64,000 nt of DNA, taken from positions 2,080,001 to 2,144,000 of the forward strand of contig CAVWGN010000001.1 in the NCBI GenBank assembly GCA_963754655.1, in the 5' to 3' direction. Below are positions 15,931 through 61,171 of the stretch, piece after piece (position 1 is the first letter of the stretch; each line of letters starts with the position of its first letter). Below the pieces are notes generated by a model, which did no database searches, was not told where the DNA came from, and saw nothing but the letters and a program-made list of their open reading frames with translations. Made by a program: the position numbers and the translations under genes. This stretch comes from an uncultured Chlamydiae bacterium (GTDB taxonomy: Bacteria; Chlamydiota; Chlamydiia; Chlamydiales; Parachlamydiaceae).

Positions 15931-16655
15931 GGGCATGTTTGCAAAATGCTAACCTCCTATTCCTGTAGTCTGAAGGACTACAAGATTCTAAAAAACATGA
16001 AATTGCGTTCGATGAAAATATGTTTGGAATAGATGATTCTCTTGTAGTCCTTCAGACTACATGACAAGGGCTAATCTAACCCAAGGCTAGGGTGTTCATT
16101 TTGTGCAAAAAATGAGCTTTATTTTTCACAATAATTGGCATAGTTAAATTGAAGGTCAGATGTTTATGCCGTCCTTTCAGGACTCGATGTCTTTGATAGA
16201 AACCCAGGCCTCCGCTTCGCTGCGACCTGGGCTGTAACATGACGGCCCTTCAGGCCTTAACAAGATGTTTAAGTCCCTCTTCTATAGTCCCTAAATCATC
16301 TTTTTGTTAAGGCCTGAAGGGCCGTCATGTTACAGCCCAGGTCGCAGCGAAGCGGAGGCCTGGGTTTCTATCAAAGACATCGAGTCCTGAAAGGACGGCA
16401 TAAACATCTGACCTTCAATTTAACTATGCCAATTATTGTGAAAAATAAAGCTCATTTTTTGCACAAAATGAACACCCTAACCCAGGGCGATGCCATGGGC
16501 TATTTTATTTGAAGCCTTTCAGGCGCTGAACATTGGATATTTTTGTTAACCACCCCTAAAAGGATTGTGGAGCATGTACTATTTAATAGGAACAGCCCTA
16601 CAATCGTTATAGAAGGAGGCCTTCCAAAAATGTCCAATGTTCAGAGCCTTTCAGA
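15931..16655. repeat. Composite fold-back cluster containing element A (16088-16479)
   Basis: 176-bp arms 16088-16263 and 16304-16479 around a 40-bp spacer, flanked by acccaaggc/acccagggc. Extra IRs at 15964-15985/16040-16061 and 16526-16545/16625-16644. C end module at 15931. Confidence 0.92.
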
Positions 16656-16884
16656 CTATTAAAAAAATCAAGTTATTTGGGAATGGTTCAAAAAGAGTAA
16701 ATTTTGGGTAACATGTTTATACCCAAAGCAAGGCTAAAGAGACAGTAATTCTTATATTTTTTTTAAATAAAAATTGTTAACAAAAATTAAATTAAATAAA
16801 TATTTTTATAAACTAAATTATATGTTATAATTTTAATTAATAAAAATTGTTAACAATAATTAAAACAAATGATTAAATTAAAGG

Positions 16885-17841
16885 ATGATTATGCAAATTA
16901 CTAACTTTCATTCACAAACAAGTCAAAGCACTTCAGAGGAATTCGAATTATTTTCAAATATAATACCTAATGATACATTGGAAATTATTTTTGATCAGAT
17001 TGTCAATCAACAAAGACAGCCTTTACGCGATATTTCTTCTATTTTACTTACCTGTAAAAAATGGGAAGAGGTTCTTAAAGCAAAGCCTTGCATCTCATTA
17101 TTGCAGACTTTTTTTAAAATGACACACAGTGATCGATTCACTATTACTCTTCCCCGGGAGTGTATTGTAATAGATGATCAAAAGAGGAATTTTACATCTA
17201 AAGAGCTTAATTTGATTGATGGAGCCGCCTATCAAGAAAGAACATTTGAAAAATTGTTGATGATGGATTCAGAATTATTTCAATCAAAGAGTTTATTTCT
17301 TTCTCTTTTGCATCGCTATCCATGGAACCCTGAAGTTTGCAAATACAGCGCCAATCAACACATCCAGATGATTGCTGAAAATCAATTGTCTATTTTAAAT
17401 TCTCTTATATCAGGAAGTGATGAAGAAAAATTAACCGTTATTAAAAATGACTTTTTCGAAAAATATTATTTTGGCGTGCAACATCAAAAATTAAAGAATG
17501 TACAAGGACCTATCATCTCTACTCTTAAAAAATTTCTCAACCTTAACGATAAAAAAATTTTTATTCAATTTGCTCACCGTTTTGGACCTACTGTTTTTGA
17601 TATAGATGAAAGCTTTAAAAAAGATCGAGAAATTGTCTTAGCTGCCGTTAAGCAAAATGGCTGGGCTCTTATGTATGTAGATGAAAGCTTTAAAAAAGAT
17701 CGAGAGATTGTCTTGGCTGCCGTTAAGCAAAACGGCTTTGCTATTATCTTTGCAGATGAAACCCTTAAAGCAGATAAAACCATTCAAGAGATTGTCTCGG
17801 CCTTCAGGGCAATACCGTGCCCCCTTCAGGGCAATAGCTAA
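16885..17841 (+). CDS. F-box-like protein with C-terminal DUF4116-type repeats
   Basis: IPNDTLEIIFDQI...ILLTCKKWEEV, plus two KKDREIVLAAVKQNG repeats. Confidence 0.75.
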   Translation: MIMQITNFHSQTSQSTSEEFELFSNIIPNDTLEIIFDQIVNQQRQPLRDISSILLTCKKWEEVLKAKPCISLLQTFFKMTHSDRFTITLPRECIVIDDQKRNFTSKELNLIDGAAYQERTFEKLLMMDSELFQSKSLFLSLLHRYPWNPEVCKYSANQHIQMIAENQLSILNSLISGSDEEKLTVIKNDFFEKYYFGVQHQKLKNVQGPIISTLKKFLNLNDKKIFIQFAHRFGPTVFDIDESFKKDREIVLAAVKQNGWALMYVDESFKKDREIVLAAVKQNGFAIIFADETLKADKTIQEIVSAFRAIPCPLQGNS

Positions 17842-18166
17842 GCTTATGATTTTTTACTCCTTTCGGTCTACTGGACTGAAAGGAGAATAGCTCTAAAATC
17901 AACTTCCTAAATTTCTACTGAGTCTTGATTTTTAGCGTTTCTCTTCATGAAGCCTGATTTCTTATCAATCCCTCTCTCTTTGTATGTCGTTTTTTCTTTA
18001 AATTTTTTTATTATTCCAGGATTTAAATAATTAACGGAAATTGCGCTGAAGAGAACTTTTCCTTGTAATTAAAAGCGATTTTCAGTATGATTATACCAGT
18101 CATTTATATTAATCAAGTTCCAACACCTAGCCACTCTTTCGGCTTATAACTTATGGGAGATTTCTG

Positions 18167-18436
18167 ATGTCTCTAGACAAAGGTACCAAAGAAGAAATTA
18201 CAAAAAAGTTTCAGCTTCATGAGAAAGATACCGGTTCAGCCGACGTTCAAATTGCCATTTTAACAGAGCGCATTACCGAGCTTACAGATCATTTGAAACG
18301 AGCACCTAAAGATCACGGTTCTCGCTTAGCTCTGCTCAAATTGGTTGGCCAACGCCGTCGTTTGCTCGATTATCTTAATTCAACAGATACTAAGCGTTAT
18401 CAAACGCTGATCAATAAACTAAAGCTCAGACGTTGA
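18167..18436 (+). CDS. rpsO: 30S ribosomal protein S15
   Basis: [37 protein letters not shown]. Confidence 0.98.
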
Positions 18437-18455
18437 TTCGACTTTAAAACAAACA

Positions 18456-18487
18456 AGAAAAGGGCAGCTAAGCTGCCCTTTTCTCTT
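18456..18487 (+). terminator. Intrinsic terminator after rpsO
   Basis: agaaaagggcagc-taa-gctgcccttttct. Confidence 0.75.
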
Positions 18488-18796
18488 AGACCAGAAGAAA
18501 TGATTCCAGACATGAAAGGATATAGAACTCAGAAAACTCCCTTTAAAAAAATTGAAGCGTGTTTTCTGATTTCTATTCGCCCCTTTCAAATTGGATAACT
18601 TTTCTCTTTTTTCCTTCAAAGTCAATGCATGGTCAGTCGCAGAGAAGGAAAAGAAAAGGCATAGCCTTATGCTATCTAAAGATTCTTCCACTCGCTTGCT
18701 TATAATCATTTAAAATTTAGGCATTCTTAAGCTAACAGCAGGGATCGAAGATAGAAATTATCAAGTCATATTTTTACTTTATGGAGAAATGAATTC

Positions 18797-20887
18797 ATGC
18801 AACGCGACATCCTTTCTGTCAACATCAATGGACAGGAAATTATTTTTGAAACAGGTAAAATTGCTCGTCAAGCTGGCGGAGCGGTTATCGTTCGCTGTGG
18901 GGAAACCATTGTGTTTTCGACGGCCTGCGCAGCCCCCAATCCAGATCCTAAAGCAGATTTTTTGCCTTTACGCATCGATTATCAGGAAAAATTTTCCTCT
19001 GCTGGCAAAACGGTCAGCGGTTTTATTAAAAGAGAAGGGCGCCCTGCTGAGCGCGAAATCCTTGTTTCACGTCTGATTGACCGTCCTCTCCGCCCTTTAT
19101 TTGAAAAAGGATACTATAACGAAGTTCAAGTCCTTTCTTATGTGTGGTCTTATGATGGCGTCCACTCGCCTGATCCTTTAGCTATTTGCAGCGCTTCGGC
19201 AGCTTTGGTCATTTCCGATATCCCTTTGAGCAAACCTGTGGGAGCCGTCAGAGTAGGCTATTTGAATGGACAATTTATCGTCAATCCCACAATCGAACAG
19301 CAACGCCAATCCAAGCTTGATTTGATGCTGGCTGGAACAGAAGATGCCGTTTTGATGATTGAAGGATTTTGCGATTTCTTGACAGAAGAGCAGGTGTTGG
19401 AGGCTATCGCCGTAGGCCATCAGAGTATTAAGATCATTTGTCAAGCTTTAATTCAATGGCAAGCACGCGTCGGAAAGCCTAAAAATCATGACAATTTGCG
19501 TCTTATTCCAAAGGAACTCTATCAAGAAGTGGAATCAATTGCCAATCCACTTTTAGAAAAAGCGCTGCGCATTAGCGAGAAGAAAAAGCGGGAATCGGAA
19601 TTGAGCACTGTCAATCAAACAGTCAATGAAGCCCTTTTTCCAAAGAATGCTGAACCGAAATATTCCGCACAAGATGTCAATTACGTCATTAAGGATGTTT
19701 CCTCTAAAATGATGCGTCGCATGATTTTAAATGAAAATCTACGCTCGGATGGACGTCAATCTACTGAGATTCGCCCTATTGACATTGAGCAAGGTATGCT
19801 TCCCCGCGCCCATGGAAGTTCTCTATTTACAAGAGGAGAGACGCAAGCCTTAGCAGTTTGTACACTGGGTGGTGAAGGAATGGCACAACGTTACGAAAAT
19901 TTAGAAGAAGAAGGCAGCCAACGTTTTTATCTTCAGTATTTTTTTCCTCCTTTTTCTGTTGGCGAAGTGGGTCGTATAGGTGCGCCAGGCAGAAGGGAAA
20001 TCGGACATGGAAAGTTAGCCGAGCGCGGACTACTGGCTTTACTTCCAACTAAAGAACAATTTCCTTATACGATTCGAGTCGAATCTAATATCACTGAATC
20101 CAATGGATCTTCCTCCATGGCAACTGTTTGCGGCGCCTGCTTAGCTCTCATGGATGCTGGAGTCCCCATCAAGCGTCCCATTGCGGGAATTGCCATGGGA
20201 CTCATTCTCGAAGACGAACGCTTCATGATTTTGTCAGACATTTTGGGAATTGAAGATGCTTTAGGCGATATGGACTTCAAAATAACTGGAGACCAAGAAG
20301 GCATTACCGCTTTCCAAATGGATATTAAAGTAGAGGGAATCACTTTTGAGATCATGCGCGCTGCCTTGCAACAAGCAAAAGCAGGACGCATTCACATTCT
20401 CAACAAGATGCTGGAAGTCAGTCCGACCTATAAAAAGCAAATGTCGCGTTATGCTCCACGCATTGAAACAATTCAAATTAAGCCCAGCAAAATTGCCACG
20501 GTCATTGGCCCAGGCGGCAAGCAAATTCGTGCCATTATTGAACAAACCGGTGTTCAAATTGACATTAACGATGATGGCTTAGTCAGTATTGCAGCTGCCG
20601 ACCTCGAAAGCATTGAAAAAGCGAAAGTCATCATTCAGGGTTTAACAGCTGAAGTTGAAATTGGCAGAATTTATGCAGGAAAAGCCACTTCCATTGCTCC
20701 TTTTGGAGTATTTGTCGAAATTCTTCCTGGTAAAGAAGGGCTTTGCCACATTTCTGAATTCGATACAAGCCGCATTGCCGATTTAGCTGATTTTGTCAAA
20801 GTAGGTGATAAATTGAGCGTGAAGGTCTTAGACATTAACGAAAGAGGACAAATCAAGTTGAGTCGTAAAGCGACTTTAACAGGATAA
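18797..20887 (+). CDS. pnp: Polyribonucleotide nucleotidyltransferase
   Basis: RNase PH domains (RREIGHG, SNGSSSMA, GDMDFK) plus KH and S1 domains. Confidence 0.98.
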   Translation: MQRDILSVNINGQEIIFETGKIARQAGGAVIVRCGETIVFSTACAAPNPDPKADFLPLRIDYQEKFSSAGKTVSGFIKREGRPAEREILVSRLIDRPLRPLFEKGYYNEVQVLSYVWSYDGVHSPDPLAICSASAALVISDIPLSKPVGAVRVGYLNGQFIVNPTIEQQRQSKLDLMLAGTEDAVLMIEGFCDFLTEEQVLEAIAVGHQSIKIICQALIQWQARVGKPKNHDNLRLIPKELYQEVESIANPLLEKALRISEKKKRESELSTVNQTVNEALFPKNAEPKYSAQDVNYVIKDVSSKMMRRMILNENLRSDGRQSTEIRPIDIEQGMLPRAHGSSLFTRGETQALAVCTLGGEGMAQRYENLEEEGSQRFYLQYFFPPFSVGEVGRIGAPGRREIGHGKLAERGLLALLPTKEQFPYTIRVESNITESNGSSSMATVCGACLALMDAGVPIKRPIAGIAMGLILEDERFMILSDILGIEDALGDMDFKITGDQEGITAFQMDIKVEGITFEIMRAALQQAKAGRIHILNKMLEVSPTYKKQMSRYAPRIETIQIKPSKIATVIGPGGKQIRAIIEQTGVQIDINDDGLVSIAAADLESIEKAKVIIQGLTAEVEIGRIYAGKATSIAPFGVFVEILPGKEGLCHISEFDTSRIADLADFVKVGDKLSVKVLDINERGQIKLSRKATLTG

Positions 20888-20897
20888 CAAGAAAAAC

Positions 20898-20935
20898 AAA
20901 CTCAGCCGTATTGCATTCAATAGGGCTGAGTTTTT
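20898..20935. terminator. Terminator hairpin between pnp and the convergent ORF
   Basis: aaactcagcc...ggctgagttttt. Confidence 0.7.
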
Positions 20936-20946
20936 GCCTCTTTTTT

Positions 20947-21522
20947 TTATCTTTCTGCAAACCTTTTCAATGGATTGGATTGGACATGTTTAGCTTTGCT
21001 ATGAATCTGTTCCATGACTCTTTCTACTTCTCGTTCAATACCCCAATATTGCTCCGCCACCATTTCAACAGGCGCTCTGCTAGGCAATTTAGCAGGCAAT
21101 CTTCTTAATAAGTATTGTTCAGTCTGATTAATCAAACCTAATTGGTGTTGAAGGCCAGGCATAGCGCGAGCAGAAGCAGCGGCGCGCTTAATACGCTCCT
21201 TGGCCATTTTCCGAATAATTTGACTACTGAAAATATTCAACATCGTTGTCTCATATAGCAGCCAAACCACTAATTGATAATCATTTTTGATAGCCGGCTG
21301 GTCATGAATCACACTCGCCATTTTATTGATTTGTTTATTCACATCGATATTCATTTCATTCGCTTTTTGAATCCATTGGCGAAATGTGAGCGTTAGATCC
21401 TGTTGTTTCCACACTAAATCAGCAAAAGCTTCTTTTTGCAGATTTTGTTTAGAATGAGAAACATCTTGAGAGCTTGAAATCACTGGAATAGCACTAGATC
21501 CGAGGGAGGATTGAACAAACAT
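20947..21522 (-). CDS. Hypothetical helical protein with Ser-rich N-terminus
   Basis: ATG at 21522 preceded by GGAGG. No recognisable domain. Confidence 0.65.
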   Translation of the reverse strand: MFVQSSLGSSAIPVISSSQDVSHSKQNLQKEAFADLVWKQQDLTLTFRQWIQKANEMNIDVNKQINKMASVIHDQPAIKNDYQLVVWLLYETTMLNIFSSQIIRKMAKERIKRAAASARAMPGLQHQLGLINQTEQYLLRRLPAKLPSRAPVEMVAEQYWGIEREVERVMEQIHSKAKHVQSNPLKRFAER

Positions 21523-21731
21523 AAAGCCTCCTAAGTAGGGATGAAAAAGCAACCTCAACTTTACAAAAATCGGTTCTTAAACAAAAAAACCTTTTATAAA
21601 GTTGCGTTGCATTAATCTACACATAGCTCAAAGTTTCTTTTATGAAAATAAGCTCAGCAAAAAAATAAACAATTAATTTCTTGACTTCTTTAAAAAAAAA
21701 GCAAATTTGATTTTGATGAATAAAGACAATC

Positions 21732-21757
21732 AAAAAAAATGGCTCTTAGGAGCCATT
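21732..21757 (-). terminator. Terminator after ftsH
   Basis: atggctc-ctaa-gagccat followed by a T-run on the minus strand. Confidence 0.6.
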
Positions 21758-21801
21758 CATTTTTCTATTCATCGCACCTGCAGTGCGATGAATAGGTGAC
21801 G

Positions 21802-24567
21802 TTAGGAAGAAAGTCCGAGAGAGCTAGATAAAGGACCTTGAGTCGATAATCCAACCTCTTTAGGAGGAGGGGGAGGCGGCGTTCCGGGCGGCTCTTTTTT
21901 ATAAAGATCGGCTGCACGTTTGAGTCTGTCTTTTTTGCGATTAATGTCCCAATTTTTCTTAATGACAATTTCTTGCACATCTTCGCTATCCAAAGTTTCA
22001 AATTCCATGAGCATTTGAGTCATGAGTTCGACTTGAATGCGATATTCAAGAATAATTGCACGTGCTGTTTCATGGGCGTCATCCAAAATTTTTCGTACTT
22101 CGACATCAATAGCTTTAGCCGTTTCATCCGAATAAGGTTTTTCATGATATTCTCCAAAGCTATATCCACCATAGCCCCCATTGTCAGATCGCTCATCGTA
22201 TGCAACAGCACCGAGCTTATCGCTCATCCCCCACTTACAAACCATATTACGAGCTAACTGCGTTGCACGTTCAATGTCTTGTTGAGCTCCACTTGAGACA
22301 TCTTGAACAAAAATCTCTTCAGCAACTCGTCCACCCATCAAGACGGCTAATTGATCATGCAGTTCGTGCTTCCAATAGCTCACGCGATTCTTTTTAGGCA
22401 AAAACATGGTTGCACCAAGTGAAATTCCTCGCGGAATAATGGTGACTTTGTCAATAGGATCCCCACTCTTGACGACAAGACCCACCACAGCATGACCGGA
22501 CTCATGATAAGCGGTTGTTCGCTTTTCATTTTCATCCATTTCCAAGCTGCGTCGCTCTTTTCCATAAAGCACTTTATCGCGTGCTTCAATTGTTTCTTGA
22601 GCTGTTACTGCACTTCTTCCCTTACGGGCTGCCAATAAAGCCGCCTCATTGAGAATATTGGCTAAATCAGCGCCTGATGAACCTGGCGTACTGCGAGCAA
22701 TTGTCATTAAATCAACAGAAGGATCCATTTTAATTTTTCTAGCATGGACTTTAAGAATATCGTAGCGCCCCTTGATATCAGGAAGGCCAATCACGACACG
22801 GCGATCAAAACGTCCAGGCCGCAATAAGGCTTTATCCAAAACATCCGGACGATTAGTGGCAGCCATCAAGATGACTCCCTCATTAGTATCAAATCCATCC
22901 ATTTCAACAAGAAGCTGATTGAGAGTTTGTTCGCGTTCATCATGTCCGCCTCCAATTCCTACACCGCGATGACGACCGACTGCATCGATTTCATCCATAA
23001 AGATAATGCAAGGTGCTGCCTTTTTGGCTTGATCGAATAAGTCGCGAATACGGCTTGCTCCGACACCAACAAACATTTCAACAAAATCTGAACCTGAAAT
23101 AGAGAAGAAAGGACGATCTGCTTCTCCTGCCACTGCTTTTGCAATGAGCGTTTTTCCTGTTCCTGGAGGTCCAATGCAAAGAACACCTTTGGGAATGCGA
23201 CCACCTAGAGTCGTGAATTTTTGAGGACTTTTTAAGAACTCCACAATCTCTTGTAACTCTTCTAAAGCCTCATCCACGCCAGCCACATCCTTGAACGTGA
23301 CTTTATTATCACCTTTATTGAGTAAACGAGCTGGCGACTTGCCAAAATTCATTGCTGTATTGCCCATCCCCTTCATCTGCCGTGCAAAAATGAGATAAAG
23401 AACAAGGATGACGAGCAAGACAGGTATCATCGTGAAAAGGTAGCTAAAATAGTTTGGCGACGTCTCTTCGCTCTTAAATGTCTTTTCTAAAACCTTATTG
23501 AGAGGTTGACCAGGAGCTCTAAAAATCCCGCCTCGGTTGTGATTAAAATTCGTCCACTCCTCTTTTGCTTTGGCAAACCACTGACCATAAACCTCAGGAT
23601 CTTGTTTTTCCAGGGCCCGCGTGGTCAGTTCTTGGTTGTTGAAATACCAAATGACATTGGCAACGGATTGACGGGCTTTATCCAACTGAATTTGATTGTC
23701 TTCAAGACGCGAATGAATTTGGCTATATTCATCTAATGTTTCTTTATAGCTACGAACACTGCGCAATTTACCTAAGCGTACGTGATCCTCTTCCTGATTC
23801 ACCTCTTCGACAACACCCTGAAGGGCATCTAATGCTTTGCCATAAGTGGATAAACGCTGACCTGAGGACACTTGTTGTACGTTGGCCTCTGAAACATCTT
23901 TATCGATAGTTTTTAAATTTTGTTTAATTGTTTCAGAGCCAATTCCTAATGCTGGAGAACGAAAATTCCTCAATAACTCACTTATTCCATTGCCTAAATT
24001 TTTCAAAGCGGTAGGGGAAGGCTCAAGCTGAGCTTGCGTATATTCACGTTGGAGATCAGTTAAACTCTCATGATTGCTTTTTGGAAGAGTTTTGATCACC
24101 ACACTGTTATCTTCATCTAGAGTATTGTAAAAATCATCGACAACAACATAGCCCCCTTTAGACAATTGAATGCCACTGAGCTGTAAAAAGAGCATAGCTG
24201 AATCATAAATTTTTGATTTAAGATTTTTCAATTCAGTCTTGACACGTGTCTGATCTGACTTAAGCTCATGATTCGTATTGAGAAGTTCGAGGTACTTATA
24301 ACGCGTTTTCCCTTCTTCAATGAGTCGATCTTTAAATTTTCCACTAAATGTCACTAAATTGTCATTTAAAGCAATTTTGTGGCTTTCCTCTGGCTGCAGA
24401 AGCTGCAAGTTGACAAGATGTTCCAATTGGTAACTAAATGAAACCTTGGCAAATTTTGTGTCGATAAAGTTTTGCACCATAAGGGCAAACAAAAAAGCGG
24501 CCATTAGGAACCAAACAAAGCTGTTTGACATTCCCTTCTTAAAGTCTTGTTTATTGTCGTCTGGCAT
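21802..24567 (-). CDS. ftsH: ATP-dependent zinc metalloprotease FtsH (long periplasmic domain)
   Basis: [22 protein letters not shown] and HESGH motifs. Two TM segments. Confidence 0.98.
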
Positions 24568-29098: not shown

Positions 29099-29419
29099 AG
29101 GGTGATTAAATCTGGGAGTTTATATTTTTTAGCAGATCGATACGAAATGGTAGGGCGGCGGTAGCCGCTTTCAGTGGGAAGCCCCGTATGAAGCGAGCTT
29201 GCGAGTGGAATGCGGGATGAGCATCAATAAAATATAAACCGCGGAAGCGGTGTGAGTGATCTTACGCTGCTTCCGCAGCTCAATGCTATCTTGCCTACAC
29301 CCCGCATTCCACTCGCAAGCTCGCTTCATACGGGGCTTCCCACTGAAAGCGGCTACCGCCGCCCTACCATTTCGTATCGATCTGCTAAAAATATAAACTC
29401 CCAGAGTTAATTACACCCG
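29099..29419. mobile_element. Non-autonomous fold-back element B, copy 1, with 8-bp flanking direct repeat cgccattt
   Basis: Arms 29111-29216 and 29301-29405 with an inner hairpin. cgccattt at 29091-29098 and 29420-29427. Second copy at 44419. Confidence 0.85.
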
Positions 29420-29524
29420 CGCCATTTTGCTACATCAGATTTAGGTAGACAAAATATAAAAATTACTTTAATTAAGACAACCAATGATTTGAATTCCTTA
29501 ATTTATAAGAGAGAGGACTAATTT

Positions 29525-30574
29525 ATGAGCAAAATGTTCTTCATGGGCAAAATGTTATTGTCATTGCATATTTTGATGCTGCCTATACTTCTAACAGCCG
29601 TTCCAGAAATGAATGGTAGTGAAGGCAAAGTTCATCCGGAGCTTTTAACAGAAAATGTGAAAATTAACAATAGAGACCCATTGTCTGATGCTTTGATAAC
29701 TGGCTGTAAAGCTCCAAAACTGTGTCGTCGCGGGGCAACAGGAGCCACAGGAGCTACAGGTGCAACAGGAGCTACAGGATCAACAGGATCAACAGGAGCT
29801 ACAGGATCAACAGGATCAACAGGAGCAACAGGTGCAACAGGATCAACAGGGCCAACAGGTAGTTGCAGTGGTTGCAATAGTGGATGCCTTGTAGGGGAAG
29901 TAACGACCTTTTTTAGCCCCTCTGGAGCTACTGGCTGCATTGGAACGACTGAAACTTTCGGAGTGTCCCCCTCCGTAGCAGTAACAGCCTATAACAAACC
30001 CAGTCTTAGTCAGCCTTCTGGTGGACTTTTGAATTTATATAACAAGAATGACATGTTTGGAGAACAAGGAGTTGGCATTTGTGGTAGTGGTCCTGACAAT
30101 GAGATTAGCGCATTTAATTTCATCCAAATCGATCTCTCAAACCTTCAGACAATGACACCTCCTCCCAGTATGATTGATCTCACGATCCAAAGTATTCAAA
30201 ATAATGAGGGATTTGCTGTCTATAGTACCAATACAGCAGGCCAGTTGGGTACAACGCTAGTTGCCCAAGGTGCGAATCCACCTGGCGCTGTCGTTCAAAC
30301 GGTTCCCATCTCATTTGTTAATGCATCAGGTAATATCGTGATTCCGAATTACCTCAGCGTTACTGCGAATGCGGGAGACGTTTTATTGAGCAGCGTATCA
30401 ATCCCTAAGTGCGATACAATCAATGCACCTCTTATACTTGTTGTCCCCAGTAATATCGGCATGACTTCTAATATTGCTGGTAGCTTTATCGGACAAATTG
30501 CCTTCTTCCAAAATCCTGGCCTAATAGGGTTATGGGTTTGGAATGGATCGCAATGGCTGCAGGCGACTCCTTAA
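29525..30574 (+). CDS. Secreted collagen-like (G-X-T repeat) protein
   Basis: Signal-peptide-like N-terminus. 14 G(A/S/P)T triplets at 29732-29857, flanked by Cys clusters. Beta-rich C-terminal domain. Confidence 0.85.
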
Positions 30575-30654
30575 TGATGCTGTTTTCTGAGGATCTGCGA
30601 CAGCTTAATGGGACATTCGCTGTCTTTTCAAACTTTTGATGACGGATTGTCTCT

Positions 30655-31322
30655 CTAGTCCAAGATGTCAATTCAATTGATATCTTGGACTAGTACTCAA
30701 CCACATTAGTTTTGCGTATTGGGATTGCTTCAAAGCCCGAGGTTGGGATGAGATGATTCTCTTGTAGTCCTTCAGACTACATGACGAGGGCTAATCTAAC
30801 CCAGAGCTAGGGTGTTCATTTTGTGCAAAAAATGAGCTTTATTTTTCACAATAATTGGCATAGTTGAATTGAAGGTCGCATGTTTATGCCGTCCTTTCAG
30901 GACTCGATGTCTTTTTGATAGAACCCAGGCCTCCGCTTCGCTGCGACCTGGGCTGTAACATGACGGCCCTTCAGGCCTTAACAAAAAGATGATTTAGGGA
31001 GATTATAGAAGAGGGACTTAAACATCTCTTGTTAAGGCCTGAAGGGCCGTCATGTTACAGCCCAGGTCGCAGCGAAGCGGAGGCCTGGGTTCTATCAAAA
31101 AGACATCGAGTCCTGAAAAGACGGCATAAACATGCGACCTTCAATTCAACTATGCCAATTATTGTGAAAAATAAAGCTCATTTTTTGCACAAAATGAACA
31201 CCCTAGCTCTGGGTTAGATTAGCCCTCGTCATGTAGTCTGAAGGACTACAAGAGAATCATCTCATCCCAACCTCGGGCTTTAGCGGTTCCAATGGGCTAA
31301 AACTAATATGGTTGAGTACTAG
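30655..31322. repeat. Nested ~630-bp palindrome containing element A
   Basis: 253-bp arms 30732-30984 and 31029-31281 (one mismatch seen), 44-bp spacer. Outer imperfect arms ctagtactcaacca.../...tggttgagtactag (30690-31322). Adjacent IR at 30655-30693. Confidence 0.95.
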
Positions 31323-40958: not shown

Positions 40959-41506
40959 CAGGGTGTTTCGACTAAAAAAAAATTGACACTTGCAGCCCTT
41001 TAGGCTGCTGCATGACACAACTCATTCAACCCCAGGGCGTTGCTCCATACGCATCAAGCTAAGAGAAAAGCGTAGGCTACGCGACGCCTTCAGTCGCCGC
41101 GCCGCTTCGCTCTGGGCTCTTAGGTAAGAGGGGGGGTGAGGACCACCGTTCGGTCGCCCTCCGGGCTCGGTCACGGTGGGCTATTACCAGTCGTCCTACG
41201 GACTCTAGCGGCAATATAGAAGCCATTGAATGCTATTTAAGGCGTTCTGCTAATGCCGCTAGAGTCTGTAGAACGACTGGTAATAGCCCACCGTGACCGA
41301 GCCCGGAGGGCGACCGAACGGTGGTCCTCACCCCCCCCCTCTTACCTAAGAGCCCAGAGCGAAGCGGCGCGGCGACTGAAGGCGTCGCGTAGCCTACGCT
41401 CTTCTCTTAGCTTAATGCGTATGGATCAACGCCCTGGGGTTGAGTAGGTTGTGTCATGCAGCCTGAAGGACCACAAGTGTCAAATTTTTTTAGTCAAAAC
41501 ACTTTG
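40959..41506. mobile_element. GC-rich fold-back element D (~550 bp)
   Basis: Long imperfect IR cagggtgtttcgactaaaa...ctagcggca / tgccgctag...ttttagtcaaaacactttg. Flanks atttttaaag (40949-40958) and atttttaagg (41507-41516). Confidence 0.88.
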
Positions 41507-44418: not shown

Positions 44419-44741
44419 GGTGTGTGATTAAATCTGGGAGTTTATATTTGTAAGCAGATCCATACGAAATGGTAGAGCGGCGGTAGCCGCTTTCAGTGGG
44501 AAGCCCCGTATGAAGCGAGCTTGCGAGTGGAATGCGGGGTGTAGGCAAGATAGCATTGAGCTGCGGAAGCAGCGTAAGATCACTCACACCGCTTCCGCGG
44601 TTTATATTTTATTGATGCCCACCCCGCATTCCGCTCGCAAGCTCGCTTCATACGGGGCTTCCCACTGAAAGCGGCTACCGCCGCTCTACCCTTTCGTATC
44701 GATCTGCTAAAAATATAAACGCCCAGATTTAATCACACCCG
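44419..44741. mobile_element. Fold-back element B, copy 2 (centre inverted relative to copy 1), with 8-bp direct repeat tgttaagg
   Basis: Same arms as 29099-29419. tgttaagg at 44411-44418 and 44742-44749. Confidence 0.88.
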
Positions 44742-51465: not shown

Positions 51466-51584
51466 TTTTTGCTCCTTTAAAAGATATTAATATCTACATC
51501 TTATATTTCTTCTATATCTCATATTCTTCTATGCACGTAAATAAAAATTTAATAAACTTAGGCATCAAGCTAAGAGAAGCCAAT

Positions 51585-52277: not shown

Positions 52278-52282
52278 GCATG

Positions 52283-53944: not shown

Positions 53945-54946
53945 TTGAGGATGCGTGAGTTTATGATGATAAATTCTTTGGAATTTTCTACCACACTTAA
54001 CTTTCATTTTCTCAACACACAATCCCCTCAAATGAGGAGAAAAACAAGTTACACGTGGGTCATTTCCGCTCTTTCTTATTTTGATGAACTTCTTATTTCT
54101 TGGAATGCAGCTCGCCCTTTGCAAGGCCATTATGTGATTTTAAGCCGTGTCTTGATTCAGGATCAATGGTCGCCTTGGCTCTTGTATGCTGTATGGGGGG
54201 CGCAATGCCAATATAGCTTTCATGACACAACTTCAAAAGCACCTGTTCATTCTTTTCAAGATCAAATAGAATTGTTAGATGAACAAGTTGCAACAGGTTT
54301 TTGCATTCGAATTGAAGCTTGTGCCGGTGCTACACTAGAAAACTTTTATACCCTATACGCTTGTACTTCTAGAATCAAAGCTCCTAAACCAACTTGGGCT
54401 TCCCCTTCATGCTCTTTTCATCCTTTATCCGTCCCCAAAATTTCCCAGCTTTGTTTAAACCATCCTCGTTCTCATAGCTTCTGCTCTCCTACATCCACAA
54501 CAGCTGTTGTTCAATACCTTCATTCTCACCAGCACTTGAGCCCGTTGCAATTTGCAAAACAAGTCTACGATGCAAGCTTTGATATTTATGGCAATTGGCC
54601 CTTCAACACTGCTCAGGCTTTTGTCGAATTGGGTCCTCAATGGCAATGCTTTTGCGCCCGTATGGCAAAAATAGAATGGCTTTGGCAAAGTCTGCAACAC
54701 GGATTGCCCGTTGTGATTAGCATCAAAGGGACGTTGCCTGGTAGTCTTCTTCCCTATTCCAACGGTCATTTAATGGTTATTAAAGGATATGATGCAACGT
54801 CTCAACAATTCTTGTGTATGGATCCTGCTTTTGCCTCAGATGAACAAACAGAGATAGCTTATCCTTGGCATACACTGATGCACGCCTGGGAAAAACGGCA
54901 CTATTTGGCTTATTTTTTTGCCAAAAGTTTAACGAAGTCAATCTGA
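53945..54946 (+). CDS. Peptidase C39-like family protein
   Basis: CSPTSTTAV, YGNWPFN and GHLMVIKG...DPA motifs. Start uncertain. Confidence 0.75.
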   Translation: MRMREFMMINSLEFSTTLNFHFLNTQSPQMRRKTSYTWVISALSYFDELLISWNAARPLQGHYVILSRVLIQDQWSPWLLYAVWGAQCQYSFHDTTSKAPVHSFQDQIELLDEQVATGFCIRIEACAGATLENFYTLYACTSRIKAPKPTWASPSCSFHPLSVPKISQLCLNHPRSHSFCSPTSTTAVVQYLHSHQHLSPLQFAKQVYDASFDIYGNWPFNTAQAFVELGPQWQCFCARMAKIEWLWQSLQHGLPVVISIKGTLPGSLLPYSNGHLMVIKGYDATSQQFLCMDPAFASDEQTEIAYPWHTLMHAWEKRHYLAYFFAKSLTKSI

Positions 54947-54965
54947 TACAGATCAGTATTATTTT

Positions 54966-56648
54966 TTATAAAGGATAACTGTGTCTTTTCCGTGTGACTT
55001 CAACTACAGTTCTATTAAATGCTTTACTAATTTCTTCATCTTCACAAACAACAATGATGCCCATTTTCTTTAAAATATTTTCCTCTTCCAAATTTTTTGC
55101 ATGCGCAATGATTGTAATGTCTGGATGAACCTCATGTGCATATCGAATAATATCAAGAGTTGTTGCAAGATCAGAGCCAGTCAGGATTAAAAGACTAGCT
55201 GAGGTAATTTGAGCCATTTCTAGCATATTGGGAAAAGCAGCCTCGCCATAAACCGCTTCGCGCTTTTGTTCAATCAATTTTGCAACTGTATCCACATTGC
55301 GATCTATAATAACAGAACGGTACCCTAATTTTTCTAAAGTATTCACAACGCTTTGTCCAATGATTTCAAAGCCAACAATTAAAGCTTTAAGTTCGCGTTG
55401 AGACACTTGTTTTAAGTGTTGCTGTGTGAATAAAAGGTTTGATTCTAATCCCTCCAATTGAGGCTTTAAATAGTTCAGAATTTTAAAAAACAAAGGATTC
55501 ACTGCAATGGAAATCAATGCACACGCTACAATGATATCATAAGCCTCATCAGGGAAAATATGAAATTTAGCAGCTTCTTCTGCTAAGATAAAAGAAAACT
55601 CTCCAATTTGAGCAAGAGCTAAGGCCACACTTAAGGCAACTGAAACAGGATAACGCATTAAGACTACAATTAAAAAAGCTGTTAAAGGTTTGACTACAAG
55701 AATAATGATCAAAATGCCTAAGAAAAGAGGAAAATGTTCAATAATGGCCATTGGATTAAAAAGCATGCCAACGGAAAGAAAAAAAATGACAACAAAAGCA
55801 TCTTTCATAGGAGAGGCATAAGCAGAGGCTTGATGGCGCACATCAGTTTGCCCGATCACCATTCCTGCGATGAAAGCGCCTAAAGCAATGGAAGTACCAA
55901 ATACAACAGCTGATCCTGTAGCTATTAAAAAAGTCAGGGCCAAAACAGTTAAAGTAAATAGCTCAGGAGAACGCGTGCGTGCTATTTTAAAAAGCGCATA
56001 AGAGACAAATTTATGCCCCAAAGTAAACATAATGGCAGCCAGCACAATAAACTTAACCACAACAAGAGCCATAGAAGTTAAAATTTCTTGCATCGAAATA
56101 GTGGCTCCAGTCAAAAGAGCAACAATAGTAGGAAGCAAAATAAGCACTGCAACAGTTAGAATATCTTCGACTATCAACCATCCTACCGCAATATATCCTT
56201 GCAAAGTCTCTAAAAGATTGTGATCAGCAAGAACTCGGACCAATACGACAGTACTGGCAACACCTATTGCCAAACCAATCAAAACACCTGCTTCCCATCC
56301 ACCCCACATGTAATGAACAAATAAGGTTGCAGCAGCTGTGGCAACTAACGTTTGTATAATTGCTCCTGGAATGGCGATATTTTTAACATTGACTAAATCT
56401 TGCCATTTAAAATGAAGACCGACCCCAAACATCATTAACATGACGCCTACTTCTGCCAGTTGCTCTGCAAGCTGAAGATTCGCAACGTATCCCGGAAAGT
56501 AGGGCCCAATAACATAACCCGCCAACAAGTACCCCAAAATAGGGGAGAGTTTTATCTGCTGGGTCAAATATCCTAAAAGACTAGCTAAAGTAAAGCCTAT
56601 CGTCAAAATAATAACGATATTGAGATTGAGATTAATCGACTCTTCCAT
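54966..56648 (-). CDS. CPA2 cation:proton antiporter with TrkA-N domain (YbaL/RosB-like)
   Basis: GYLLAGYVIGP, LMFGVGLHF and LAQIGEFSFILA motifs, C-terminal RCK domain. Confidence 0.92.
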   Translation of the reverse strand: MEESINLNLNIVIILTIGFTLASLLGYLTQQIKLSPILGYLLAGYVIGPYFPGYVANLQLAEQLAEVGVMLMMFGVGLHFKWQDLVNVKNIAIPGAIIQTLVATAAATLFVHYMWGGWEAGVLIGLAIGVASTVVLVRVLADHNLLETLQGYIAVGWLIVEDILTVAVLILLPTIVALLTGATISMQEILTSMALVVVKFIVLAAIMFTLGHKFVSYALFKIARTRSPELFTLTVLALTFLIATGSAVVFGTSIALGAFIAGMVIGQTDVRHQASAYASPMKDAFVVIFFLSVGMLFNPMAIIEHFPLFLGILIIILVVKPLTAFLIVVLMRYPVSVALSVALALAQIGEFSFILAEEAAKFHIFPDEAYDIIVACALISIAVNPLFFKILNYLKPQLEGLESNLLFTQQHLKQVSQRELKALIVGFEIIGQSVVNTLEKLGYRSVIIDRNVDTVAKLIEQKREAVYGEAAFPNMLEMAQITSASLLILTGSDLATTLDIIRYAHEVHPDITIIAHAKNLEEENILKKMGIIVVCEDEEISKAFNRTVVEVTRKRHSYPL

Positions 56649-56966
56649 AGAATATCCTTTGAGCCTCAAATAAGTGATTGGATAGCGATGACAAAATTTA
56701 ATTTTAATATAGGCAATATTCTTTTATCTGGAAATAGACTAAAATCCAATCTTAATCAGGTTTTTAAATAGAGGAATCTTGGAATAACAGTCTGTTTTTG
56801 ATTCCTAACAATTTACGAAAATATCGTTTTTTATTAAAATTACCCTTTCTAAAATATTCCCTAACATCCTAAAGAAATGATGAAAATACGATTGAAACCT
56901 TTTTTATTAGAACAAATATTAACTGTAATTTTTTATTTATCATCCATCCAATTAGAGGCAAATACA

Positions 56967-58004
56967 ATGTTATGGAAAGGCTTTGCTAGCGATAACTATG
57001 CGGGTGTTCATCCCACAATTTTAAAAGCTATTCAAGAAGCTAATCAAGGTCATAGCAGAGCCTATGGAGATGATACATATACCAAAGAAGCTGTCGCTTT
57101 ATTTAAACGCTATTTTGGCGATGACATTGATGTTTATTTTGTTTGCAATGGAACAGCAGCCAACGTCCTTGGTTTGACTACATTGCTTAAATCCTACCAA
57201 GCTATCATTTGCGCAGAATCAGCCCATATCAACGTGGACGAGTGCGGTGCTCCTGAAAAATACATCGGCTGTAAACTGTTGACGGTCGCTACAAAGGATG
57301 GAAAATTGACCATCGAAAATATTAAAAGTTTTTTAAATGCTTATGGAGATCAACATAAAGTTCAACCGAAAATCATCTCAATTGCCCAAAGCACGGAATT
57401 AGCCACTATTTATACACCTCAAGAGATCAAAAAAATCAGTGATTTTGCCCATGCCAATGGGCTTTTAGTGCATATGGATGGAGCCCGTTTGAGTAATGCT
57501 GTAGCCAGTTTAAATGTCTCTTTATCTGCAGTGACAAAAGATGTAGGAATTGATGTATTGAGCTTTGGTGGGACTAAAGATGGAATGATGTTCGGTGATG
57601 CGGTGATTTTCTTTAATAAAGATTTTTCAAAAGATTTTCCTTATATTCGCAAACAAGGGATGCAGCTGATTTCTAAGATGCGCTTTATTTCAGCGCAGTT
57701 TATCGCTCTTTTAACCGATAATCTTTGGCTTAAAAATGCGCAACATGCAAATGAAATGGCACAGTTTCTGGCAGAAGAGATTAAAAAAATCCCCGAAATC
57801 ACCATCAGCAAAAATGTTCAAGCTAATGCTGTATTTGCTTATGTCGATCCCACAATTATTTCCAAATTACAAGAAAAATACTTTTTTTATGTTTGGGATG
57901 AAGCGACTTCAGAAGTACGTTGGATGACCTCTTGGGATACAACTAAGGAGGATATTCAAAATTTTGTAACCTTCATCAGGCAAACATTAGCAAATCGGGT
58001 TTAA
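56967..58004 (+). CDS. ltaE: Low-specificity L-threonine aldolase
   Basis: FASDNY, GTAAN, HMDGARL and SFGGTK motifs. Confidence 0.9.
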   Translation: MLWKGFASDNYAGVHPTILKAIQEANQGHSRAYGDDTYTKEAVALFKRYFGDDIDVYFVCNGTAANVLGLTTLLKSYQAIICAESAHINVDECGAPEKYIGCKLLTVATKDGKLTIENIKSFLNAYGDQHKVQPKIISIAQSTELATIYTPQEIKKISDFAHANGLLVHMDGARLSNAVASLNVSLSAVTKDVGIDVLSFGGTKDGMMFGDAVIFFNKDFSKDFPYIRKQGMQLISKMRFISAQFIALLTDNLWLKNAQHANEMAQFLAEEIKKIPEITISKNVQANAVFAYVDPTIISKLQEKYFFYVWDEATSEVRWMTSWDTTKEDIQNFVTFIRQTLANRV

Positions 58005-58039
58005 TCTTGCTTAAATGATTGGAGCGGATCAACTCTTAT

Positions 58040-58087
58040 AAATGATAAAGAACACTTCCCTTGCGGGAAAGTGTCCAGGGATGTGCC
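58040..58087 (+). repeat. 48-bp direct repeat of the recombinase-tail/tRNA-Leu 3' junction (att-like)
   Basis: 44/48 identical to 63144-63191. Confidence 0.75.
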
Positions 58088-58429
58088 ATCCCAGAATAGC
58101 TTTAGCACTTTAAAGACTTTGATTAGAGCTTAATCAATTCGAATATGTTGGCCTAGTACTCAACCACATTAGTTTTGTGTATTTAGACTGCTTCAAAGCC
58201 CCGGGGTTGAATTGGCGTAAGTGGGTCAATATTAGCAATATTGACCCACTTACGTCAATTCAACCCCGGGGTTAGGGTGTTCATTTTGTGCAAAAAATGA
58301 GCTTTATTTTTCACAATAATTGGCATAGTTAAATTGAAAGTCGCATGTTTATGCCGTCCTTTCAGGACTCGATGTCTTTTTGATAGAACCCAGGCCTCCG
58401 CTTCGCTGCGACCTGGGCTGTAACATGAC

Positions 58430-58838
58430 GGCCCTTCAGGCCTTAACAAAAAGATGATTTAGGGACTATAGAAGAGGGACTTAAACATCTCTTGTTAAGC
58501 CTGAAGGGCCGGCCCTTTAAGCCTTAACAAAAGGACTATTTATGGACTATAGAAGAGGGACTTAAATCTCTTTTGTTAAGGCCTGAAGGGCCGGCCCTTT
58601 AAGCCTTAACAAAAGGACTATTTATGGACTATAGAAGAGGGACTTAAATCTCTTTTGTTAAGGCCTGAAGGGCCGGCCCTTTAAGCCTTAACAAAAGGAC
58701 TATTTATGGACTATAGAAGAGGGACTTAAACATCTCTTGTTAAGGCCTGAAGGGCCGGCCCTTTAAGCCTTAACAAAAGGACTATTTATGGACTATAGAA
58801 GAGGGACTTAAATCTCTTTTGTTAAGGCCTGAAGGGCC
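58430..58838. repeat. Five tandem ~82-bp hairpin units (amplified centre of element A)
   Basis: ggactatagaag recurs at 58463, 58544, 58626, 58708 and 58790. Confidence 0.95.
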
Positions 58839-58948
58839 GTCATGTGGTCCGATCTAGGGACATGGGTAACACTTTATCTAAGGACATAGGTGACATTATC
58901 CAAGGACATGGGTAACACTCCGGTTGATTAACAACTGGAGGTAAACCC

Positions 58949-60103
58949 ATGCCTTGGAGGATTATGTCGACTACAGAGGAACGTAAAAAATTCATAGATC
59001 AAGCTTTACGCACTGATCGCCGCCATGTAGCTTTTGCAGATTTATGTGAAAGTTACAATATTAGTACTAAAACAGGATATAAATGGTTAAATAGATTTAA
59101 AAAAAACGGAGAAAAGGGCCTTGAAGACCTTTCTCGGGCTCCCTTTTCCCACCCTAATCAAATTTCAAAAGAAGTTGAATTAGCAACTGTCAGTATTCGC
59201 AAGCAATTTCCTAACTGGGGCCCTAAAAAAATACGAGCCGAGCTTGTAAATCACTATCGTGAATTATTAGTGCCTTCTGAAGCCAGTATCGGTAATATTT
59301 TAAAGAGAAATAATTTGTCCAATCAACGAATCCACAGGAGACATGTTACTCAAACAGCTCCATTGGGCGATTGCAACGCTTCAAATGATACCTGGATGTA
59401 TGATTTTAAAGGGTGGTTTCGAACAGGTGATAATCAAATATGCGAACCTTTAACAGTTACAGATGGCTTTTCTCGCTATCTTCTTCATTGTCAACATATG
59501 CCAAGGAAACGGGGATGTGATGTTTGGAAGGAATTAGAACAACTTTTTTATGTGTACGGATTACCAAAGAAATTGCGAAGTGATAATGGTCCCCCTTTTG
59601 CTTCTTTGGCTGTAGGTCGATTATCTAGCATTGCAATTAAATTAATCAAAATTGGCGTTACTCCAGAATGGATCGATCCTGGATGTCCTGAACAAAACGG
59701 TAGGCATGAGAGGTTTCATTTAACTCTAAAAAATGAGACAGCAAATCCCCCAGCCTTGACGTTATCTCTTCAACAGGAAAAATTTCTTCAATTCAAAAAA
59801 TATTACAATAACAGACGTTACCACGAAGCATTAGGCCAGCAAACACCAGCTTCCGTGTATAAACCTTCTCGACCTATTTGGGATGGTAAATTCAAACCCA
59901 TTGAATACCCCAGTTACTATGAAGTCAGAAAAGTTTGCGCAGGAGGATTGATTTCTTGGAAGGGCACCTATTTCTTCATTAGTGAAATGCTACGAGGGGA
60001 ATATGTAGGACTCAGAGAAATTGAAGTAGGGATAATGGGGATTTATTTCGGCCCAATTCTCCTAGGAAAAATTAACATGGCCAGAGGGTTTAAGAGATTA
60101 TGA
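58949..60103 (+). CDS. IS481-family DDE transposase
   Basis: MPW start, HTH (ISTKTGYKWLNRF), WMYDFKG, RSDNGPPF, QNGRHERFH and YNNRRYHEAL motifs. Confidence 0.95.
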   Translation: MPWRIMSTTEERKKFIDQALRTDRRHVAFADLCESYNISTKTGYKWLNRFKKNGEKGLEDLSRAPFSHPNQISKEVELATVSIRKQFPNWGPKKIRAELVNHYRELLVPSEASIGNILKRNNLSNQRIHRRHVTQTAPLGDCNASNDTWMYDFKGWFRTGDNQICEPLTVTDGFSRYLLHCQHMPRKRGCDVWKELEQLFYVYGLPKKLRSDNGPPFASLAVGRLSSIAIKLIKIGVTPEWIDPGCPEQNGRHERFHLTLKNETANPPALTLSLQQEKFLQFKKYYNNRRYHEALGQQTPASVYKPSRPIWDGKFKPIEYPSYYEVRKVCAGGLISWKGTYFFISEMLRGEYVGLREIEVGIMGIYFGPILLGKINMARGFKRL

Positions 60104-60547
60104 AGGAAAACACAAATTTTCTACCAAAAAGTTTAAACTTACAGATGAGCAAATTAGGATATACGTATGGTTGAAAGAGCAAGAAATAAATACAGATGAT
60201 GGAACTCTTTGCTATTGGGTAAAAACATACCCTTCAAAAAGGCTAAAAGAAGTTGTTGAGTTTGCAAATGTAAGAATGACTTCAGGGCAGAAAATCCTGA
60301 ATACTGGGGGATTTATTCGTAATCTCCTTCAAAATGGAAGTACAGTTGTTAACGATACATGTCAATTCAATCGAGAATATGCATTAGAATTGCTATGACA
60401 AAAAAGTGGAGTGATTTGAAAATTTACGAAAAATATGTTAAGGACAGTGTAACAGGAGATGACCTCCCTTTAACTATAGTAATAAGTGAGTTTAAGCTGG
60501 CTCTTGAAAGGCTGTACCAAAAAAGTTGTCTTTATAGATGGGCCTAA
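60102..60547 (+). pseudogene. Start-less, frameshifted passenger gene fragment inside the IS
   Basis: Frame EGKHKFSTKKFKLTDEQIRIYVWLKEQEINTDDGTLCYW...ALEL continues in another frame as AMTKKWSDLK...RWA*. Confidence 0.55.
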
Positions 60548-61171
60548 AAAGGACATTGCCTTATTATATAAGTGTTTTATTTTAATTAAAACCGTTACCC
60601 ATGTGCTTAGATAGAGTTACCTATGTCCTTGGATAATGTGTTACCTATGTGCTTGATCGGACAATGTTACAGCCCAGGTCGCAGCGAAGCGGAGGCCTGG
60701 GTTCTATCAAAAAGACATCGAGTCCTGAAAGGACGGCATAAACATGCGACCTTCTATTCAACTATGCCAATTATTGTGAAAAATAAAGCTCATTTTTTGC
60801 ACAAAATGAACACCCTAGATCAGGGCCGGGACTTAACAAAGAACTGTTTTTGGGCTTGATATTCGTCGAGTCAATTTAACAATACCCCGCCTGTAACAGG
60901 CTTTAGAGGCATATTTCCCGAAAATGACGCGAAAAATATCAAGTCCAAAACAGTTCTTTGTCAAGTCCCGGACCAAGGCAACACCCTGGGTATAAGTGTG
61001 TTGTGTTATGCAGCCTGAAGGGCTGCATGTGTCAAATATTTTAGTAAAACACCCGTTATGAGTTAGAAAAAATATATAGCGGAGTGGTTATAATTGCGTG
61101 TATTATCATTTATATCACTTTTTGGTAATGTTTTTCAGACACGCCCTAGCATAGTACGAATCTTTTATCTC

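Follow-up and report, generated by a model that had tools for sequence, protein, structure and literature searches.

In the present study, we analysed the nested palindromes of a DNA stretch of 64,000 nucleotides (hereafter the window) from an uncultured Chlamydiae bacterium of the Parachlamydiaceae (assembly GCA_963754655.1, contig CAVWGN010000001.1, positions 2,080,001 to 2,144,000 of the forward strand). These palindromes are probably the product of a layered system of several mobile elements and not of one family. The layers are hairpin arms tied to HUH-Y1 transposase genes, shells of miniature inverted-repeat transposable elements (MITEs) derived from DDE-type insertion sequences (IS), insertions of autonomous IS, and template switching between arms. 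The original prediction had described one set of fold-back elements whose cores resemble repetitive extragenic palindromes (REPs) mobilised, as paired REP hairpins (REPINs), by RAYTs (REP-associated tyrosine transposases). The cores are REP-like and cognate Y1 genes are present in the genome, but these genes are not canonical RAYTs, and most of the dispersed units are bounded by DDE-type IS ends, several of them with direct target duplications.

The system is large. With a library of 18 modules, drawn from the window and from two Y1 flanks, 127,879 bp of contig C1 are covered, or 4.1% of the contig and 14% of its DNA outside open reading frames (ORFs) of at least 200 aa. The modules lie at 421 loci in 212 architectures, in agreement with the earlier claim that newly arriving modules land in older ones and share in their copying. 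Nearly all of this DNA is intergenic, since 122 of the 127,879 bases fall inside such ORFs. Elements were found in 56 of 173 convergent and in 40 of 277 divergent intergenic gaps, and no clear replication-strand bias of the modules was seen.

Y1 genes and their hairpin arms

A Y1_Tnp profile search of the genome, as the original prediction had proposed together with a RAYT search, gave seven full and three partial matches. One is an IS605-type TnpA, and six are full genes of five types, here called A, S, B, F and D. Four types are single-copy, whereas S has two full and two partial copies; two full and one partial S-type genes lie within ~6 kb at C1:2539400-2548300, one of them adjoining an IS481 copy inside an A element. 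The five proteins carry the motifs DH[IV]H (four of five, DHLH in one), WQ (five of five) and Y---Q--HH (four of five, one ending in YH). They have a core of 148-150 aa (one with a longer possible start) and a C-terminal tail of ~30 aa, and the paralogues have diverged to 37-49% identity to the first sequence. Judged by sequence, the five low-copy genes agree with TnpA-Y1 subclass 1.2 as characterised in PMC6006769 (DH[IV]H, WQ and Y---Q--HH, ~150 aa with a ~30-aa tail, low copy number, divergent paralogues). The RAYT model NF047646 gave 22.6-25.3 bits for four proteins and no match for the fifth, against a cut-off of 80, while the cut-off of the IS200 model was exceeded. The Y---NP motif and RAYT profile of canonical class 2 were thus not found in these Y1 genes. 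The nearest solved relatives of the A-type protein in a sequence search are IS200/IS605 TnpA; its structure was predicted with a pLDDT of 81. In a same-genus genome one of the five types lies in synteny (77% identity, with a neighbour gene at 80%), and no synteny of the other four was seen among 28 loci.

The core of the elements is an inverted pair of ~95-nt three-hairpin arms, and each arm type matches the flank of one Y1 type. The downstream flanks of the five types match 157, 91, 34, 35 and 72 loci, each a different repeat family. Arms stand on both sides of the A, S and B genes and only downstream of the F and D genes. These flank repeats form the cores of elements A, C and E in the window (A arm), the S flanks of these elements, and elements B and D. 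Gene remnants further tie repeats to genes: among 25 matches that span the end of the S gene and its arm, 23 are remnants and two are intact genes, and gene fragments are kept in about eight A-type derivatives. A symmetric A-type derivative of 420 bp with Y1 gene pieces (Q-type) occurs at C1:233968-234387, 960406-960825, 972915-973334 and other sites. Its ends are sharp, with the target duplication absent in four of five copies, and by sequence they may mark the true Y1 cleavage point.

The arms are also found at homologous genes in other genomes. We compared 110 loci, made up of the best 80 of 592 GTDB loci and 30 from a search of relatives, two of the latter being this genome's own. The genes occur in chlamydia-like genomes, Planctomycetota, Verrucomicrobiota and Acidobacteriota. 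Of the 104 loci that had both flanks, 80 showed an inverted match between the upstream and downstream flanks (score of at least 30), compared with 0 of 83 far-flank controls. The GTDB loci were retrieved with the subclass motif, and the motif count of 78/80 among them is therefore circular. For the arm structure, 43 arms were chosen by eye from 76 automatically delimited downstream arms. In this alignment the three helices are paired in 96% of 772 cells, two-sided changes occur in 17 of 18 pairs, and 150 two-sided changes stand beside G-U type pairs in only 6 of the 772 cells; the structure was read from the 43 sequences themselves, which biases the controls in its favour. The consensus has no GTAG/GTGG foot; what is conserved among its unpaired positions is a CT immediately 3' of hairpin 2. 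The arm model R1 built on these 43 arms detected arms in 44 of 45 held-out GTDB loci and no arm at an IS605-type gene (L001), and gave the window A arms 55-61 bits.

Among 40 relatives, R1 matched in 21; these genomes are kin and not independent, and eight supplied training arms. Gene and arms occur together in 16, neither in 18, the gene only in one and the arms only in five, four of these five being genomes 68-81% complete. Arm doublets are dispersed in this genome and in relatives, and protein type equals arm type in 13 of 15 loci of chlamydial relatives with a scorable flank. As a first step of the system we propose that each of the five enzymes, whose association with its own arm is described above, would be active on that arm. 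Internal deletion would give gene-less derivatives, and inverted arm pairs, which correspond to REPINs, would be another form of them. By analogy with IS200 TnpA and RAYTs, the enzyme most likely binds and nicks the hairpins in single-stranded DNA.

The Rfam model of the orphan motif Acido-Lenti-1 (RF01687) matches hairpins 2 and 3 of the A arm with 36.4-38.7 bits, around its gathering threshold of 37. The A arm directly beside the A gene scores 36.4 bits and lies just below, and the commonest A arm likewise scores 36.4. In this genome 11 of 83 scored matches exceed 37, the window copies being below, and a scan of the window against Rfam at the gathering threshold gave two tRNAs only. The B, D, F and S arms do not reach the model. 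When 20 of the 80 distant Y1 genes were scanned, RF01687 matches lay within ~150 nt of 14 (nine above the cut-off), facing as inverted ends in 13 of the 14. In a broad phylum sample the Rfam model matched in only one of 60 other genomes. Acido-Lenti-1 is listed as a small RNA (sRNA) in Rfam and is rated 'probably' RNA in Table 1 of PMC2864571. The Rfam entry covers two of the three hairpins and treats them as RNA, whereas here they behave as the end structure of a DNA element.

Elements of the window

Self-BLAST and an inverted-repeat search, the checks suggested at the outset, recovered the palindromes and the shared modules. The composition of the window is as follows, with the strand where one applies.

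15965..16032, forward strand: remains of an S-type Y1 element, with a single upstream hairpin fused to the last ~16 decayed transposase codons by an internal deletion of ~400 bp
16033..16087, forward strand: first half of an S-type three-hairpin arm, terminating in the 9-bp target that received M
16088..16479, no strand: element A, an M shell (ends resembling those of an unclassified T419-family IS) enclosing an N shell (16137-16430, MITE ends) enclosing an inverted A-arm pair with spacer
16165-16262 and 16305-16402, no strand: arms of element A, an inverted pair
16480..16670, forward strand: target copy, remainder of the S arm (hairpins 2 and 3), K spacer and partial mirror arm
29100..29418, no strand: element B, a MITE shell (ISKra4-type ends, direct target duplication of 9 bp) with an asymmetric core
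29153-29222 and 29298-29364, no strand: inverted pair of B arms
30690..31322, no strand: element C, a G MITE (CTAG ends) enclosing mirror-image half S arms (30746-30806, 31207-31267), an M/N shell (30808-31205) and an A-arm pair (30885-30983, 31030-31128)
40959..41505, no strand: element D, mirror-image J modules around inverted D arms; target duplication by eye only
41036-41215 and 41254-41433, no strand: arms of element D, matching the flank of the fifth Y1 gene
44420..44740, no strand: second copy of element B, core orientation reversed, 8-9 bp target duplication
58152..58845, forward strand: left part of locus E, with the G left end and central hairpin (58152-58270), an M/N end, an A arm (58350-58448) and five tandem 82-bp spacer units
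58846..60663, forward strand: IS481-type insertion sequence, transposase at 58949-60103
60664..61060, forward strand: right part of locus E, with the A-arm remainder, an M/N end (to 60817), an H module (60823-60974) and half a J module

Of the six non-coding palindromes of 300-630 bp first proposed, five are present (16088-16479, 29100-29418, 30690-31322, 40959-41505 and 44420-44740). The sixth, 58152-61055, is 2.9 kb long, is coding because of the IS481-type element inside it, and is not fully palindromic, its left and right outer shells being unrelated. Locus E is probably a recombinant junction, because the modules of its right flank are unlike those of the left side, and occasional recombination between copies may swap outer flanks in this way. 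The five fold-backs have 43-56% GC against 38.5% in the window, and DNA folding paired 87-95% of their bases. Two module matches that had been given as identical are re-uses with changes: 16031-16087 differs from 30751-30807 at three of 57 positions, and 58153-58200 from 30690-30737 at four of 48. The proposed likeness of the right end of locus E to the right arm of D holds (60979-61052, 81.6% match to 41427-41502 by self-BLAST), as does the placing of module A in differing outer shells at three window loci. Module re-use is far above chance, because there are ~290 A arms genome-wide.

To the left of element A lies the end of a decayed Y1 transposase gene (15986-16032) that the original prediction had overlooked. 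A gapped alignment joins 15965..16032 to the intact S gene at C1:2544233-2544685; compared with the S element, window 15965-16087 keeps the upstream hairpin, the last codons and the downstream arm on either side of the deletion. In element C the left half of the S arm stands on both sides with a private variant mirrored, and its arms (30732-30984 and 31029-31281) differ by one mismatch in 253 positions. Two candidate modules were dropped: a separate 'P' hairpin is the native centre of the 168-bp G element, and 'K', once taken as an insertion, is the spacer of the S element.

In window 29099-31322, element B, a collagen-like gene (29525-30574) and element C lie between lptG and matE, and in a same-genus genome (G001) the lptG and matE matches are ~140 bp apart. 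The collagen-like gene may have arrived with or between elements B and C.

Shells and target duplications

Most A arms (228 of 260) are found within an N/M shell. In another genus, ends of M type enclose a T419-family transposase gene, 32% identical to the unclassified T419 of this genome, and in three genera they bound a 151-bp MITE without A core that has 9-bp duplications, exact in three of four copies in relatives. B-type ends bound a 1432-bp ISKra4-type IS in another genus. Ends shared with an autonomous IS were thus found for M and B, in both cases in other genera, and no parent IS was found for N, G, H or J. G is a 168-bp element bounded by CTAG when unfilled. ISAs1 was an early guess for the shell parent, dropped once the M ends matched the T419-family IS, and IS1595 was rejected as it had no match in this genome. 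It had been noted beforehand that modules matching the ends of a single known IS would speak against an independent palindrome system. Several shells do match IS ends, of different families, but the cores do not.

Direct target duplications accompany these shells. B elements have 9-bp direct duplications in 14 of 22 cases (control 0/462), and N shells have 8-bp direct duplications in seven of 19, with two ambiguous (control 2/342). In six of the 19 N shells the repeat is inverted because these shells sit in another palindrome. The 9-bp flanks are exact direct repeats in nine of ten T419 copies and in one of 49 short M elements, of which 13 have exact inverted flanks. The inner ends of element C share 10 bp with T419 ends and might mimic them, yet an exact 9-bp direct duplication was found in 0 of 22 such elements. 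IS200/IS605-type enzymes make no target duplication. Since direct duplications are present and Y1 chemistry makes none, the dispersed composites of this genome were most likely moved by DDE enzymes. In other genera (L223, L225, L230 and L237) the cargo of the N and B shells is palindromic but unrelated, which suggests from sequence that the same shells repeatedly captured REP-like cores. As a second step, arm pairs would first have been enclosed in DDE-derived shells, whose ends and duplications are those just described (M with T419-family ends, B with ISKra4-type ends, and also N and G). The composites would then have been copied as units by DDE transposases in trans, which would explain the near-clonal copies with target duplications.

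Insertion sequences at the modules

In seven IS families, a module adjoins 43 of 44 copies, compared with a background of ~0.25. The counts are 9/10 for T419, 10/10 for an IS5/IS1182-like family, 8/8 for IS256, 6/6 for a second IS5, 5/5 and 3/3 for two IS481 types and 2/2 for IS4. A CTAG-targeting IS5 adjoins a module in 14 of 23 copies, IS607 elements in 0/11 and 1/3, and IS630 in 0/2. Several families use one exact site. T419 is a 1846-bp IS with ten near-identical copies (for example C1:69957-71802) and two distant relatives (C1:427158 and 2744303); it has no Pfam or NCBIfam match and makes exact 9-bp duplications at CCCWGGG-like stems.

The IS481-type element of the window is 1818 bp long and encodes a 384-aa transposase with rve and LZ_Tnp_IS481 domains, IS481 being the best model at 190.8 bits, below its cut-off of 224. 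Its ends are 70-bp imperfect inverted repeats. All five identical copies sit in the same 4-bp site of the A arm, and the site is duplicated in 5/5. Identical IS copies show recent activity, as the claim of an active system had it. About 500 bp follow the transposase (window 60104-60600), apparently with a short ORF.

IS1397 and IS621 are REP-targeting insertion sequences, and the targeting seen here is this known habit in unusual breadth. As a third step, further MITEs and autonomous IS from seven or more families enter fixed hairpin sites, a pattern evident in these counts. The Russian-doll architectures would follow because each insertion brings or duplicates new targets.

Symmetry of the arms

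Substitutions alone were scored, as mirrored in both arms of one copy, against re-paired controls. Mirrored substitutions exceeded the controls for A (30; control mean 2.6, maximum 12), M (54; 12.1, maximum 19), the inner part of D (55; 15.4, maximum 30) and the B shell (11; 1.1, maximum 6), with a marginal excess for G. The arms are therefore partly homogenised. As a fourth step, template switching would copy one arm onto the other across module borders, and it would economically explain both the mirrored variants and the inverted M flanks. Such arm-to-arm switching would turn direct duplications into inverted flanks and yield mirror-image chimeras such as element C. Assembly polishing may account for single variants, not for the duplications, the gene remnants or the pattern in relatives. 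At window 16647-16660 the hairpin loop has the opposite orientation to that in six of the seven other copies of the same element, likely by a local template switch.

Alternative explanations

Several observations weigh against the layered system. R1 gives the B, D and F arms only weak matches beside their cognate genes (E 0.001-0.007) and leaves the window's modules B, D and J unmatched. Outside chlamydiae, protein and arm type agree in four of seven scorable loci, and the cross-phylum set is itself the motif-retrieved best 80 of 592. Amplification is uneven: the number of Acido-Lenti-1 matches in five distant genomes ranges from one to at least 37, and two of five other genomes contain a match to a generic hairpin pattern. 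With regard to the shells, this genome yielded no transposase bounded by M, N or B ends; the ISKra4 query and IS1595 are likewise unmatched in it, and T419, the relative of M present here, has different ends. Target duplications were not shown for J, K and the Q-type derivatives. Furthermore, unmirrored A substitutions (74) outnumber the mirrored ones, the B arms (five, against a control maximum of six) and S arms (six, against a maximum of six) are not above controls, and the two arms of a locus are closest to each other, compared with all other loci, in 49 of 80 cases. The IS enrichment could partly reflect selection for harmless sites.

A single RAYT-like Y1 activity that makes and disperses all the nested elements as REPINs, with the shells as older REP modules, would fit the presence of cognate Y1 genes, the sharp ends of the Q-type derivatives with a duplication in one of five, and the arm pairs of relatives, most of which have no obvious shell or duplication (20 regions in five genomes, judged by eye). 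This explanation is unlikely, as the shells end in sequences that match DDE-type IS from other genera and have direct duplications of 8-9 bp, most A arms are within shells, and N and B shells hold unrelated cargo elsewhere. The opposite view, in which all modules are ends of DDE insertion sequences (plain MITEs) and the Y1 genes merely lie in repeat-rich regions, agrees with the IS origin of several shells and with the many IS in repeats. We regard it as very improbable: in many phyla Y1 homologues have arms of this architecture beside them and no shells, arms and proteins pair by type, and gene remnants lie within the repeats. The cross-phylum flanks contradict it unless they reflect retrieval bias.

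The arms may instead be primarily functional RNA (Acido-Lenti-1 RNA, terminators or mRNA stabilisers), their Y1 proximity being regulatory and their spread passive by hitch-hiking in MITEs. The sRNA listing in Rfam and the excess in convergent gaps speak for this, but arms that are inverted on both gene sides, vary with the protein and enclose gene remnants do not, and the 150 two-sided against 6 G-U type changes suit DNA or both-strand hairpins better; we consider a primary RNA role improbable. Least credible, and to our judgement barely so, is an artefact of assembly, amplification or fold-back reads. Assembly indel noise exists (12 gaps in the overlap of contigs C2 and C1) and perfect arms can be over-polished, but the modules avoid ORFs, have target duplications and asymmetric cores, and similar arm pairs occur in independent assemblies. 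A public run with near-identical DNA, which may be the source sample, has a depth of ~3 that rises to 443 over the A arm, and an exact-match public contig (40773-41118) crosses the left junction of element D. The contigs of this run showed no joint that skips an element, and no RNA run was among the public runs listed for this DNA. At the ~70% identity of the nearest genomes, empty sites in relatives could be seen only as gene-scale absence, in one genome.

Comparison with known systems

As in REPtrons and REPINs, a low-copy Y1 HUH gene is flanked by inverted hairpin repeats, several gene-repeat pairs share a genome with a separate repeat for every gene, inverted doublets are dispersed and the repeats are IS targets (PMC6006769, PMC8266576, PMC3337134). 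In contrast to class 2 REPtrons, the proteins have class 1 motifs (Y---Q--HH, not Y---NP) and score below the RAYT cut-off. The unit differs from REPs in being a ~95-nt three-hairpin arm without a conserved GTAG foot. The doublets are mostly wrapped in DDE MITEs and near-clonal, whereas the REPIN spacers of P. fluorescens are all different (PMC3337134). Table 1 of PMC6006769 gives 'REP: no' for subclass 1.2, mostly of Cyanobacteria and Bacteroidetes, and a term search of its supplements gave no subclass 1.2 rows among the places listed. The published trait of 'no flanking REP-like structures', which is descriptive and lies outside the definition by sequence, does not hold for the genes described here, which have conserved arms beside them, amplified to hundreds of copies.

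TIRtrons (TIRYTs) are similar in that Y1 genes carry long inverted repeats unlike GTAG REPs, some amplified as dimers or clusters (PMC3733652). Their GGGGWSAS motif is not in the arm consensus, and 26 TIRtron examples were placed in class 2 subclasses by Quentin et al. (PMC6006769). The shells resemble bacterial MITEs, which are IS ends that are non-autonomous and have target duplications. Like REP-targeting IS such as ISPpu9 (PMC8450116), the IS described here insert site-specifically into palindromic repeats, but at least seven unrelated IS families act on one repeat system and MITE shells captured doublets. Quasipalindrome correction by template switching (PMC8604942, PMC13100816, PMC5941160) likewise homogenises arms and extends symmetry into flanks; the arms here, unlike those cases, are 100-250 bp long and span the borders of unrelated mobile modules. 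The core works like a REPtron/REPIN without being a canonical member, and is carried and elaborated by MITE shells and REP-targeting IS.

The nesting and the IS targeting alone are rich examples of known habits. New from this genome are the five enzyme-arm pairs, the gene remnants linking the repeats to their genes and the capture of arm doublets in DDE shells. Tentatively, and with less confidence than in the layered system itself, we suggest a wider reading. Subclass 1.2 with its three-hairpin arms might form an unrecognised cross-phylum class of REPtron, near to IS200 but able to form REPs, and Acido-Lenti-1 might be a DNA recognition structure and not an RNA. In the present lineage, DDE MITE shells would have captured the doublets, fold-back copying would have built the symmetric composites, and extruded or Y1-nicked hairpins would be a shared landing pad for unrelated transposases. 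A literature search that covered few subscription journals yielded no paper that connects subclass 1.2 with repeats, links Acido-Lenti-1 with transposases or places such elements in chlamydiae. With five enzyme-arm pairs, a single genome offers a specificity matrix for studying the recognition and spread of REPs by Y1 enzymes, on the IS200 side of the divide between IS200 and RAYT. With respect to chlamydiae, more than 4% of a genome consists of nested mobile palindromes that channel IS into intergenic space, and nested palindromes can act as recombination points.

Other observations

Contig C2:25940-35310 overlaps C1:1-9380 at 99.67%, with the 12 gaps mentioned above, and C2 is probably a chromosomal overlap or alternative haplotype, not a plasmid. 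In the window, tandem leucine-rich repeat (LRR)/F-box, OTU-like, F-box and RING genes lie at 596-3805, 10647-13249, 15280-15903 and 62335-62787. LRR/F-box, OTU-like and RING proteins are eukaryote-like proteins typical of environmental chlamydiae.

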